The translations under genes and the position numbers were made by a program. DNA of 25,126 bases from Actinomycetota bacterium. Lineage in GTDB: Bacteria; Actinomycetota; Acidimicrobiia; Acidimicrobiales; Ilumatobacteraceae. Shown in pieces: positions 14,658-17,633 of this stretch. Every line of letters begins with the position of its first letter. Positions within the stretch are counted from its first letter, which is position 1. Under the pieces are notes generated by a model that saw only the letters and a list, made by a program, of their open reading frames with translations, made no database searches and was not told the DNA's origin. Location of the stretch: assembly GCA_005789925.1 (NCBI GenBank), contig SXWG01000156.1:1-25126 (forward strand). The letters run 5' to 3'.

Positions 14658-15449
14658 TTAGCGCGCACCGAACCACATCCCCGCTTGCACAATCGTGTCT
14701 GCCTCAACAAGCAAAACGACTTCTTGTGGCGACATGTCGAAACGGTGCACATCGACTTTTGCAACTGGTGTGATGCCGTCATGATGTTCCACCACGAAAC
14801 GCACGTTCTCGCGTAAGTGTCGGCTTGTGAGCAATTGCTCTTCCATGATCTCCCAGTACGCGGCGTTATTCATATGTTCCAGCGCATCGAAGTCCGAGAA
14901 GCGTGTCACCCACTGTGATGTCGAATGTAACGCCCCACTTGCTTGCACCACACTCGGCTTCACAACATGGCGTGCACCAACAACGCGGCCACCTGTTGAT
15001 GTCCCCCACACCTGATGAAGTGTCGGTGTGAGTTCTTTCGGCCGCATCGTCTTCATGTCGATGTGCACCCACAGTGCTGACGCATCGACCAGCACGCGAC
15101 CAGATTCATCGACCATCTGAGTGCGTCGCTCAGCCCAGTGCGACCCGAGACCAGCGACCCACGTCGCGAGCGAGAGGCGCTGAAGATAGGTCGGAAACGA
15201 GTGAACGTCGATCAGCGTGCGTCGCACCACCCATCCGTGCAGATCGTTACCGACGACTCCCGTGTCTTGACCGTCGTCTTTAGCGATGTCCTGCAGATAT
15301 CGAGCAAGGGAATCAAGTCGGCACCGGCCTCCAGGGCTTGCATCACCCAGACGGATAGGTCGTGTTGCTCGAAATAGCCGACCAGCGACCGGAGGTGCCA
15401 CGCAGTCGAGGGCGGCCACTTTGTCGTACAAGGTCACGACCTCGACCAT
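14658..15449 (-). CDS. Acyl-ACP thioesterase family (double hot-dog)
   Basis: IRLGDASPGGRCRLDSLARYLQDIA, WVVRRTLI, RFSDFDALEHMNNAAYW. Start ATG 15449 is likely but not certain. Confidence 0.85.
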   Translation of the reverse strand: MVEVVTLYDKVAALDCVAPPVAGRLFRATRPIRLGDASPGGRCRLDSLARYLQDIAKDDGQDTGVVGNDLHGWVVRRTLIDVHSFPTYLQRLSLATWVAGLGSHWAERRTQMVDESGRVLVDASALWVHIDMKTMRPKELTPTLHQVWGTSTGGRVVGARHVVKPSVVQASGALHSTSQWVTRFSDFDALEHMNNAAYWEIMEEQLLTSRHLRENVRFVVEHHDGITPVAKVDVHRFDMSPQEVVLLVEADTIVQAGMWFGAR

Positions 15450-15473
15450 AGAGCCCCACCTTCCTCCTCGCAC

Positions 15474-15490
15474 CCCTTGTGCCACAAGGG
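15474..15490. repeat. 17-bp palindrome CCCTTGTG-C-CACAAGGG, with a further half-site CTTGTGG at 15500-15506
   Basis: Read directly, in the divergent intergenic region between the thioesterase and the whiB7 leader. Confidence 0.7.
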
Positions 15491-15505: not shown

Positions 15506-15546
15506 GAAAAACCGCTTGCCAGGGCTGACAAATGTGTGGTTAGGTT
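15506..15546 (+). promoter_or_regulatory. WhiB7/WblC-type promoter: A-tract GAAAAA, -35 TTGCCA, long spacer, -10 TAGGTT
   Basis: GAAAAA at 15506-15511, TTGCCA at 15516-15521, a 19-nt spacer, and TAGGTT at 15541-15546. An AT-rich box just upstream of -35 is the known WhiB7 AT-hook site. Confidence 0.65.
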
Positions 15547-15554
15547 GACACTTC

Positions 15555-15740
15555 ATGAGTTCAAACGCCGCTGCAAAAACCTTCTGGTCCACGGGTAGCC
15601 CCGTGGTCTTTGCTGCGCGCGCATTTTCCTATGCCGTGGCCTTTACGACCGCGACGTATGCCATGTGGTTTACCAAGCCGATGGCAGCGAAGCATTCGAA
15701 TAAGCGCACCGCCCGGCACCTCACGAAGGCTCAGATGTAG
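15555..15740 (+). CDS. Leader peptide (uORF) of the whiB7 attenuator, 61 aa
   Basis: ATG is 8 nt after the -10 box and the stop is 26 nt before the terminator stem. Contains 14 Ala and no Asp/Glu. Four of five Phe codons are TTT, atypical for this genome. Confidence 0.75.
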   Translation: MSSNAAAKTFWSTGSPVVFAARAFSYAVAFTTATYAMWFTKPMAAKHSNKRTARHLTKAQM

Positions 15741-15762
15741 CGAAAAGCTCCATACAAGCCGC

Positions 15763-15799
15763 AGAGGCCGCCGGGTTCCACGAACCGGGCGGCTTTTTT
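15763..15799 (+). terminator. Intrinsic terminator/attenuator between the uORF and whiB7
   Basis: Stem GCCGCC-G-GGTTC / GAACC-G-GGCGGC (15767-15793) with a CAC loop, followed by TTTTTT (15794-15799). Confidence 0.9.
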
Positions 15800-15838
15800 G
15801 TTGCCCACATTCACCTTCACACACAGAAAGCAGACACC

Positions 15839-16189
15839 ATGTACACAGCAATCAACAAAGAAATCGGCGGAGTCGCACTCCGTGAAGAGCCGGCACGTTT
15901 GTCGGCTCTGCGCTGCAGCGATGGCAACGGAACGTTGTCGTACCTCTTCTTCTCTGAGGAATACGTCGACATTCAGCGTGCCAAGGCGATCTGCGCCAAA
16001 TGCACATCTGCACGTGACTGCCTGCAAGGCGCCCTCGAACAGCTCGAGCCGTGGGGCGTTTGGGGAGGTGAGTTGCTCGAGATGGGACGCATCGTGGCAG
16101 TGAAGAAGCCACGAGGACGTCCACCCACAAAATCGCGCCCGGTCATCGAGATCGACGAGGTACCCATTCCTCGTCACCTCGTAGCCTGA
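15839..16189 (+). CDS. whiB7: WhiB7/WblC-like Fe-S transcription factor with AT-hook
   Basis: Four Cys (C-x25-C-xx-C-x5-C), EPWGVWGGELL turn, and C-terminal KKPRGRPP AT-hook. Confidence 0.88.
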   Translation: MYTAINKEIGGVALREEPARLSALRCSDGNGTLSYLFFSEEYVDIQRAKAICAKCTSARDCLQGALEQLEPWGVWGGELLEMGRIVAVKKPRGRPPTKSRPVIEIDEVPIPRHLVA

Positions 16190-16193
16190 CCAT

Positions 16194-16778
16194 GTGAGAA
16201 TCCGTCGGAATCTCCTTGTCTGGTCGACCGTGGCGGCACTTGTCGTCGCCATCGTCGGGGGTTGGCTGTTCAGCTCGGCCTCCGACGACGGCGTCGACGC
16301 CAATCTCACGAACCCGGGTGTCGTACAAGACCCCACCATCGGCACTAATGCGGTCTCACGTGGCGAGCAACTACCCGCAATCAATCTGCCCTCCGTGGCA
16401 ACGGGCGAGATGACCGCGATCTTCCCTCAGGGCCGCCCACTCGTCATCAACTTCTGGTTCTCCACCTGCGAGCCCTGTCGTCGTGAAATGCCGGCACTGC
16501 AAGATGTCAACCAACAACTGTCGGGCAAGGTCGACGTCATCGGCGTGAATCCGAATGACACTGCCGATGTCGCCGCACAATGGGCCGCTGACATCGGGGT
16601 TACCTTCCCGCTCTACACCGACCGCGATGCGGAACTTCTCACCAAAGTGGGAGTCGGCACCATGCCCACCACATTGTTCGTGTCCACTGACGGCGTCGTC
16701 GTCGACACCCATGCTGGTGAAATCACTGCCGACGAATTGCGTGCTGCCATCACCAAGAACTTCGGCATCAAGGCGTGA
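16194..16778 (+). CDS. TlpA/ResA-like membrane-anchored thiol-disulfide oxidoreductase
   Basis: N-terminal TM, VINFWFSTCEPCRREMP (CxxC), and MPTTLFV. TAGCCT-6nt-GTG start. Confidence 0.9.
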   Translation: MRIRRNLLVWSTVAALVVAIVGGWLFSSASDDGVDANLTNPGVVQDPTIGTNAVSRGEQLPAINLPSVATGEMTAIFPQGRPLVINFWFSTCEPCRREMPALQDVNQQLSGKVDVIGVNPNDTADVAAQWAADIGVTFPLYTDRDAELLTKVGVGTMPTTLFVSTDGVVVDTHAGEITADELRAAITKNFGIKA

Positions 16779-16781
16779 ACC

Positions 16782-17633
16782 ATGGAAGGTGATTTCGCCT
16801 ACAGCTTCATCCTCGGTGTACTTGCTGCCGTGAACCCATGCGGCTTCGTGTTGTTGCCGACCTATCTCTTGTACTTTCTTGGTCTTGAGAGCCATCGTGA
16901 ATCGACACAGACCGCGTCACTTCGTCGTGCGCTCACTGTCAGCGCGGCAGTGAGTGGCGGTTTCATCGCGGTGTTTCTCGTGGTCGGCATCATCACGCGC
17001 TTGTTCACCACTGTTCTCTCCGACAACGCCAAGTACGTCGGGCTCCTTGTTGGTGTAGTGCTCACCGTGATGGGTGTGGCGATGCTCACTGGGTGGAAGC
17101 CGACGTTCTTGCGACCATCAATCACTGCGGATCGTGACACCACCGTCCGGGCAATGTTCGTGTACGGCATCGCCTACGCGGTTGCATCAATCGGATGCAC
17201 CATCGGTCTTCTCACCACGGTCGTACTCGGTTCAGTCGGCCGCCACGGATTCGCGTCGGGCGTCGCAAGCATCGTGCTGTACGGCCTGGGAATGGCACTC
17301 TTCGTCACTGCACTCACCGTCACACTTGCCAGCGCGCAACGAGGGCTCCTCACATTTGCACGCAACAGCATGCGTCACGTCGACAGAGTGTCCTCGGTGT
17401 TCATCACGCTCGCAGGCCTGTACCTCACGTGGTACTGGTACGGAGCAGTCACAGAACGAGCGGCAGGTTCGATCACTGGCACTGTTGATGATTGGCAATC
17501 GTCGGTGACGTCGTTTCTACAAGATCAAGGTGCGTGGCGACTTGCCAGCGTATTCACACTGATCGTGGTCATCGCACTCGTCACGGTGCGAGTCGCGACA
17601 TCGTCCACGAATCGCGATCGCGAACGTATCTGA
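16782..17633 (+). CDS. ccdA: CcdA/DsbD-type cytochrome c biogenesis membrane protein
   Basis: AAVNPCGFVLLP and ASIGCTIG (the two conserved Cys), multiple TMs, adjacent to the TlpA-like gene. Confidence 0.85.
   Translation: MEGDFAYSFILGVLAAVNPCGFVLLPTYLLYFLGLESHRESTQTASLRRALTVSAAVSGGFIAVFLVVGIITRLFTTVLSDNAKYVGLLVGVVLTVMGVAMLTGWKPTFLRPSITADRDTTVRAMFVYGIAYAVASIGCTIGLLTTVVLGSVGRHGFASGVASIVLYGLGMALFVTALTVTLASAQRGLLTFARNSMRHVDRVSSVFITLAGLYLTWYWYGAVTERAAGSITGTVDDWQSSVTSFLQDQGAWRLASVFTLIVVIALVTVRVATSSTNRDRERI

Follow-up and report, generated by a model that had tools for sequence, protein, structure and literature searches.

Does the locus at positions 15,506 to 16,189 of a 25,126-nucleotide (nt) contig from an Ilumatobacteraceae genome of the class Acidimicrobiia (SXWG01000156.1, assembly GCA_005789925.1) carry the gene for WhiB7, which in mycobacteria acts as the central switch for intrinsic multidrug resistance, together with an attenuator leader of the kind that precedes this gene elsewhere? 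The whole of this stretch is called the window, and positions are those of its forward strand. Attenuation of whiB7/wblC through an open reading frame upstream of the gene (uORF) is established for Mycobacterium and Streptomyces (PMC11550727, 10.1101/2023.06.02.543512), the Streptomyces wblC case being that of Lee, Lee and Roe 2022 as it is cited in PMC11550727. A literature search found no paper pairing WhiB7 with the Acidimicrobiia. The original prediction, made from the letters of the window, had listed an A-tract, −35 and −10 hexamers, a uORF, a hairpin followed by six T residues and a WhiB protein with GVWGG and RGRP motifs, and every one of these elements is present in the place assigned to it. 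It had also guessed at an environmental member of the Acidimicrobiia, which is borne out by the origin of the DNA runs containing the stretch, which are from freshwater, river, estuary and reservoir metagenomes; the source genome is a metagenome-assembled genome of 1.5 Mb, 63% complete, with 58.5% G+C. Our answer is that the locus is very probably a freshwater Acidimicrobiia whiB7/wblC gene with a ribosome-sensing uORF attenuator leader, the mechanism resting on homology to the known systems.

The gene that the leader would control is the following.

15839-16189, forward strand: whiB7/wblC orthologue, 116 residues (Pfam, PDB match, tree)

On its sequence, the 116-residue protein is a WhiB7/WblC orthologue. 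It scores 45 bits against the Pfam Whib model (cut-off 23.6), and the cysteines C26, C52, C55 and C61, invariant in an alignment of nine orthologues, form the C-Xn-C-X2-C-X5-C pattern for a [4Fe-4S] cluster. Residues 70-77 read EPWGVWGG, a motif found in all 94 AT-hook orthologues examined, in which the EPW triplet before the G(V/I)WGG turn is needed for binding of SigA region 4 (PMC6282962). The AT-hook KKPRGRPPTK spans residues 89-98, and its RGRP core is invariant among the aligned orthologues (KRPRGRPRK type); four cysteines, EPW, GVWGG and an RGRP AT-hook are the defining features of class V Wbl proteins (PMC6282962). The best sequence match in the PDB is Mycobacterium tuberculosis WhiB7 (E 1.1e-17), followed by WhiB3 (1.8e-5). 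We built a tree of 54 Wbl rows, taken from the source genome, four Acidimicrobiia relatives, five further families, a Mycobacterium-like genome (7 Wbl proteins), a Streptomyces-like genome (11 Wbl proteins) and the PDB fragment of M. tuberculosis WhiB7, after one very long row had been taken out; the labels "Mycobacterium-like" and "Streptomyces-like" are our assignments from the number of Wbl paralogues and from near-identity to M. tuberculosis WhiB7 or to the known WblC end, respectively. All 13 AT-hook rows, including the M. tuberculosis fragment, fall on one side of a branch with support of 97/99.9, which supports placement in the WhiB7/WblC clade. The source genome encodes five Wbl paralogues, of which the other four have no AT-hook and are placed elsewhere in the tree. 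An NCBIfam scan of the protein gave no match to any WhiB7-specific model.

Beyond the AT-hook, the window protein carries a C-terminal extension (window 16125-16189, residues 96-116) with the pattern (E/D)(V/I)P(I/V)PxHL, of the EVPIPxHLVA type, present in 66 of the 94 orthologues (loci L006-L115); the Mycobacterium-like and Streptomyces-like orthologues have no extension of this type. The last residue is Ala (VA, SA, TA, IA or AA) in 92 of the 94, and in all but two of the orthologues sampled from other classes, which resembles a C-terminal degron. At loci L061, L073, L075, L076, L079, L082, L083, L100, L085 and L103, several of them from records labelled Ilumatobacteraceae, the RGRP of the AT-hook is changed to CGRP or GGRP (as in KRPCGRPPK), with the GRP core kept and the first Arg lost. 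Family members with larger genomes have two whiB7-like genes about 1 kb apart (G131:C1:679967-681201, G311:C9:536671-538086 and G322:C1:4345961-4347347), apparently tandem duplicates, and some of these genomes hold a third copy elsewhere. The Acidimicrobiia-type locus is also found in public metagenome-assembled genomes titled Bifidobacterium breve, Bifidobacterium sp. and Bifidobacteriaceae (L038 and L062, in CAMDVC010000072.1 and CAMAYS010000030.1, and also L056, L095 and L108), with protein identities of up to 70%; the organism labels of these records are probably wrong.

The leader between the promoter and whiB7 holds the following parts.

15555-15740, forward strand: uORF of 61 codons plus TAG (ATG at 15555, TAG at 15738-15740), Ala/Thr-rich, about 8-9 nt after the −10 and without a Shine-Dalgarno sequence
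15589-15606, forward strand: hairpin CCACGGG-N4-CCCGTGG within the uORF, with a T-rich stretch after it (genus alignment, inverted repeat)
15709-15722, forward strand: 5' arm of the antiterminator (GCCCGGC plus CCTC), 5-10 codons before the stop (unconstrained minimum free energy fold, inverted repeat, genus conservation)
15728-15760, forward strand: apical hairpin of the antiterminator around the uORF stop codon (folds of 16 leaders)
15766-15799, forward strand: intrinsic terminator, a GC-rich stem-loop followed by six T (15794-15799) (inverted repeat, folding, masked fold)
15825-15830, forward strand: AGAAAG, resembling a Shine-Dalgarno sequence, at 8 nt from the whiB7 ATG (genus relatives have GAAAGGAA at the aligned position)

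The uORF appears to be a conserved, translated frame, as judged from the way in which the frame is kept. It is open in 15 of 15 non-redundant leaders of the same genus, while each of the other frames is open in one of 15; the positions of ATG and stop are conserved across the genus, and the insertions and deletions in the alignment measure 6, 9 or 15 nt, all multiples of three. Alanine makes up 23% of the window peptide against 10.9% in the long open reading frames of the genome (p 0.005), and threonine 13% against 6.3%; the two residues together account for 28-41% of the uORFs in the genus.

The terminator consists of an inverted repeat (15767-15778 with 15782-15793) forming a 12-base-pair GC stem of 92% complementarity, with a fold energy of −29.8 kcal/mol (z −3.2). 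A generic terminator scan did not list this hairpin, and our guess is that the single mismatch in the stem made the scanner skip it. The possibility that its stem, GGCCGCCGGG, is simply a generic terminator of the source genome was considered and rejected, the core being present in only 3 of 48 terminator-like hairpins; the other two hairpins with this core belong to a single bidirectional terminator, one on each strand, which separates convergent genes on contig C13.

Folded alone, the stretch 15553-15812 adopts the antiterminator as its minimum free energy structure, with 15711-15717 paired to 15770-15776, 15719-15722 to 15764-15767 and 15728-15731 to 15757-15760, which places the stop codon in the apical hairpin and sequesters the 5' half of the terminator. 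In constrained folds, masking of 15720-15753, as by a ribosome at the stop codon, leads to the terminator, and masking of the early or middle uORF leaves the antiterminator in place. The arm (CCCGGCAGCC here, CCCGGCGGCC/T in other families) is a copy of the 3' arm of the terminator, which explains the conserved basic end of the peptide, of the type KR..RRL/P; the homologous arm is kept in the genus. The inverted repeat 15709-15716 with 15785-15792 is 100% complementary. In all 16 of the genus and family leaders folded, the stop codon lies at the apex of the hairpin, 16 nt after the arm, and pairing is kept by at least six different apical stem sequences. Because the apical hairpin is misaligned by MAFFT, RNAalifold on the genus alignment returned the terminator, nearly invariant and showing little covariation, and per-sequence folds were used instead. 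The position of the arm, the apical hairpin and the constrained folds thus support the part of the proposed release switch that calls for an antiterminator which a terminating ribosome would block.

Are these parts kept beyond the genus? A whiB7 orthologue is present in 22 of 24 genomes of the same genus; of 16 other families in the order, 12 have one. For statistics at the level of the class we took 74 further Acidimicrobiia loci, with an upstream search reach of 440 nt and uORFs of at least 20 codons. A terminator-like hairpin with a T-tail lies upstream of whiB7 at 69 of 71 loci, compared with 2/68 and 2/68 in the control windows, and an open reading frame ends 18-33 nt before it at 62 of 63 loci, compared with 142 of 1260 shuffles (11%); the uORF and terminator are thus conserved upstream of the Acidimicrobiia orthologues, which the original prediction had named as a point to check. 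Upstream complementarity to the 5' arm of the terminator reaches p<=0.05 at 32 of 73 loci and p<=0.01 at 21 of 73. The significant arms end upstream of the last base of the stop codon, at a median distance of 18 nt from it (26 of 31 loci fall within 16-21 nt), which is roughly as far as a ribosome reaches when its A site holds the stop codon. The uORF peptides cannot be aligned between families, and the distance from the uORF to the terminator is fixed.

Such a leader could also be read as a switch made of RNA only, which would sense a ligand, a protein or a tRNA and in which the open frame would be incidental. This reading draws on two features. Folding alone yields two alternative structures, and there is constraint at the level of the RNA in the hairpin at 15589-15606, whose stem bases CCACGG/CCGTGG (loop N4-6) are invariant in 22 of 22 genus leaders, synonymous third positions included, while the residues they encode vary (STGSPVV in the window, TTATAVA in most relatives). 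This hairpin, which the generic terminator scan did flag, may make RNA polymerase pause so that the first ribosome can catch up. We consider the RNA-only switch highly unlikely. It does not predict a frame that is open in every genus leader and changes in length by triplets, nor a stop codon at a median of 18 nt from the arm, nor the ending of a frame at a set distance from the hairpin at far more loci than in shuffles; moreover, Rfam gave no family for the window leader at E<=10, and none for the Mycobacterium-like leaders, the Streptomyces-like leaders and those of two other families at E<=0.1.

Transcripts of the leader were found in RNA libraries. Contigs from two independent libraries start at 15570 and 15578 and together cover 15570-15832, and none of them extends into the promoter or the divergent gene beyond it; these starts agree with initiation of transcription near the uORF ATG. 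In run X17 the leader contig (15578-15832) has a depth of 88 and a contig within the whiB7 frame (15901-16067) a depth of 5.3, which agrees with a leader that is transcribed and often prematurely ended. The same pattern in this run, an abundant leader contig, a gap and then a contig of the gene, would also be expected if the hairpin terminated constitutively or served RNA stability, with whiB7 expressed from a separate downstream promoter. That arrangement is extremely unlikely in our view, given that only 39 nt separate the T-tract from the whiB7 ATG and that the scan found no promoter-like site there, that the X17 leader contig itself runs past the T-tract to 15832, and that the arm upstream, with its complementarity to the terminator, keeps its position throughout the class.

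The promoter of the leader is assigned as follows.

15506-15511, forward strand: A-tract GAAAAA, candidate site for the WhiB7 AT-hook, 4 nt upstream of the −35 (sequence, family)
15516-15521, forward strand: −35 hexamer TTGCCA (aligned with genus-conserved sTTGAc)
15537-15546, forward strand: −10 region, TGG plus TTAGGT (15540-15545) or TAGGTT (15541-15546) (genus-conserved GTGGTTT(C/G)AT block)

In the alignment of 20 same-genus leaders three elements are conserved, namely an AT-rich tract (4 nt from the −35 in the window and 3 nt from it in genus relatives), a TTGAC-like −35 and a TGG-plus-hexamer element, and the position aligned with the A-tract is AT-rich in 17 other members of the genus, of the type TTTCATTAATTCA. 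The −10 block of the genus consists of GTGG and then TTTCAT, TTTGAT or TTAGGT; the uORF ATG stands 8-10 nt further on, without a Shine-Dalgarno sequence. TAGGTT at 15541-15546 after a 19-nt spacer, as first proposed, is indeed present, but the −10 is better read, from the sequence and its relatives, as TTAGGT, preceded by an extended-type TGG and separated from the −35 by an 18-nt spacer. On this reading transcription would begin no more than about 3 nt from the ATG, and the uORF would be leaderless or nearly so. Binding of the WhiB7 AT-hook at the A-tract, with autoactivation, is a candidate role that we assign from the family (PMC6282962).

Several results weigh against a leader that works by attenuation. 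When the leaders were folded with a shorter 3' flank, the terminator was the minimum free energy structure in 68 of 77, the window leader included, and an equilibrium switch test found ribosome-type disruption in 9 of 77 leaders versus 1% in shuffles, an enrichment of about 12-fold that discriminates weakly; since the terminator is already the most stable structure in so many leaders, the choice must be kinetic, as in other attenuators. The generic E. coli-type scan, a standard sigma-70 scan, failed to report the promoter at 15506-15546, which lies outside its rules of 16-18 nt spacing and TATAAT, and the promoter was therefore judged by the genus alignment; in that alignment the A-tract of the window is weaker than in most relatives. 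The RNA data consist of assembled contigs, which show neither RNA ends nor local depth, and in run X15 the depths of the leader and gene contigs are similar (3.8 versus 6). The alanine content of the window uORF is slightly under the 25-40% reported for known whiB7 uORFs (10.1101/2023.06.02.543512). Finally, the ratio of non-synonymous to synonymous substitution rates (dN/dS) of the uORF is 0.64, compared with 0.76 and 1.16 in the shifted frames, which indicates weak constraint on the peptide; because the true and shifted frames are so poorly separated, dN/dS was not used as main evidence, and its value fits a leader in which translation and composition outweigh the peptide sequence.

That the true frame lies barely under a shifted one also speaks against another reading, in which the product of the uORF would be a small protein with a function of its own (say, a membrane peptide whose core is hydrophobic and whose tail is basic), with the hairpin as a leaky terminator that sets the gene ratio and no sensing of translation. 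The strict conservation of the frame is what such a protein would show, as are the hydrophobic Ala/Thr/Phe/Val stretch and the conserved basic end, MW..P..KH.NKR..R. This basic motif, however, coincides with the RNA arm that copies the terminator 3' arm, and the peptides diverge between families beyond alignment while the distance to the terminator does not change. Nor did Pfam and NCBIfam scans match the peptide, and its exact sequence is not among the called proteins of a 15-billion-protein collection. Taking both sides into account, we regard a functional small protein as very improbable. The same collection holds the WhiB protein under generic WhiB-family names, and the expectation that standard annotation would miss this uORF has thus proved right: the uORF and attenuator are passed over, and the gene is called only a generic WhiB family regulator.

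In the attenuation model that we prefer, transcription would be initiated a few bases upstream of the uORF ATG, at a promoter whose A/T tract next to the −35 would be the site at which the WhiB7 AT-hook and SigA act in autoactivation. Smooth translation of the Ala/Thr-rich uORF would carry the lead ribosome to the stop codon, where it would cover the arm at 15709-15722 and melt the apical hairpin; the terminator at 15766-15799 would then form, and most transcripts would end before whiB7. If the ribosome stalled earlier, whether through drugs that target it or for lack of charged tRNA, the arm would pair with the emerging 5' half of the terminator and RNA polymerase would read into whiB7 and, probably, into two downstream redox genes. 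The sequence elements and their conservation, the kept frame, the alternative folds, the conserved spacings and the membership in the clade come from the present analysis. The inducing signals, the autoactivation and the binding of SigA are taken here from the family, and by the same analogy we infer induction by ribosome-targeting antibiotics; activation of resistance genes would be expected of a WhiB7/WblC protein.

The two redox genes follow directly.

16194-16778, forward strand: ResA/TlpA-like thiol-disulfide oxidoreductase (Pfam and NCBIfam matches)
16782-17633, forward strand: membrane protein, faintly matching DsbD_TM (E 0.064; Pfam/NCBIfam scan)

Only 4 nt separate the whiB7 stop from the start of the resA-like gene, and the order and strand of whiB7, the resA-like gene and the membrane protein gene are the same at 23 of 23 genus loci and, among 81 other loci with a match to whiB7, at about 60. 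The resA-like and DsbD_TM-like genes are probably co-transcribed with whiB7, as their arrangement suggests, and the attenuator may also gate these envelope thiol-redox genes. On the other side of the locus, the divergent gene at 14658-15485 (reverse strand) encodes an acyl-ACP thioesterase (Pfam Acyl-ACP_TE), and a gene of this kind adjoins whiB7 at 20 genus loci and 22 other loci.

How far does the leader extend in the phylum? Among 301 genomes of the phylum, almost all of the Acidimicrobiia sampled have a strong match to the protein (E below about 1e-17), and such matches occur in several other families too; genomes G041, G088 and G160, with weak matches, are counted solely in this tally. 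Twenty further leaders were taken, 18 from other classes and two from other families of the Acidimicrobiia. A strict terminator-like hairpin is present in 15 of the 20, with the uORF stop 22-33 nt before it in 13 of the 15, and the terminator stems are alike across these leaders (GGCCGCGGA, GGCCACGGA, GGCCGCCGG). The Mycobacterium-like and Streptomyces-like genomes and five further families have the same WhiB7, hairpin and uORF. As the leader is found beyond the class, the architecture is phylum-wide, and the window is one more member rather than an invention of its lineage. The original prediction was right that the leader is present in the Acidimicrobiia, but the novelty is modest: WhiB7 is described as widespread in actinobacteria (PMC4255298), and the leader occurs in most of the other-class genomes sampled.

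The fixed geometry, in which about 18 nt lie between the end of the arm and the end of the stop codon, and the terminator starts 22-30 nt after the stop, leads us to propose, tentatively and at somewhat less than even confidence, that the whole leader is ancestral to Acidimicrobiia and Actinomycetes, and that the freshwater genus has a variant of it in which the uORF is leaderless, the early hairpin maybe synchronises RNA polymerase and the first ribosome, and the attenuator gates the ResA-like and DsbD_TM-like genes. If this is true, translation stress would be tied to the maintenance of envelope redox through genes for extracytoplasmic thiol reductants. An alanine-linked whiB7 circuit has been suggested, in a preprint, to be possibly peculiar to Actinomycetales (10.1101/2025.10.10.681568). 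The geometry of the leader is kept across the Acidimicrobiia, including abundant, genome-streamlined freshwater plankton that are neither pathogens nor known antibiotic producers, which argues that the circuit is ancient and serves the phylum generally as a sensor of translation stress or of the supply of amino acids. The roughly 100 natural variants of the leader offer material for finding its essential features, such as spacing, arm sequence and uORF composition.

The kind of attenuator is known, and what is local is the near-leaderless uORF, the hairpin within it, the C-terminal extension of the protein and the 4-nt link to the redox genes. The mycobacterial whiB7 leader (M. tuberculosis, M. 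smegmatis, M. abscessus) has the same parts in the same order, namely an AT-rich box by the −35, an Ala-rich uORF, an antiterminator overlapping the 3' end of the uORF, an intrinsic terminator and then whiB7. The Mycobacterium-like genomes sampled have 23-24 nt between the stop codon and the hairpin, and one of them has an arm that ends 16 nt ahead of the stop, close to the values of the window; a basic KRR-type motif at the end of the uORF is found in both. In contrast to the mycobacterial leader, that of the window comes from the Acidimicrobiia, its uORF peptide cannot be aligned and is enriched in Thr as well as Ala (23%), the uORF is apparently leaderless with an invariant hairpin early in it, the terminator stem is GGCCGCCGGG rather than GGCCACGGACCC, and whiB7 is followed after 4 nt by the resA-like and DsbD_TM-like genes.

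With the Streptomyces wblC leader, as far as PMC11550727 describes it, the window shares the logic of a uORF, an antiterminator and a Rho-independent terminator. The Streptomyces-like leaders sampled have arm-terminator complementarity with p 0-0.035 and a stop-to-hairpin distance of 23-27 nt. Their terminator hairpin lies 270-320 nt upstream of the conserved WblC core, whereas in the window the T-tract is 39 nt from the whiB7 ATG, and Streptomyces WblC has no C-terminal EVPIPxHLVA extension of the kind seen in Acidimicrobiia WhiB7. The resemblance extends to the trp, his and pheA attenuators of enterobacteria, in which the position of the ribosome on a short leader open reading frame selects between antiterminator and terminator. 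Unlike these, the leader described here has no run of a single regulatory codon, its open reading frame is 52-61 codons long, and its target is the gene of a transcription factor and not a biosynthetic operon.

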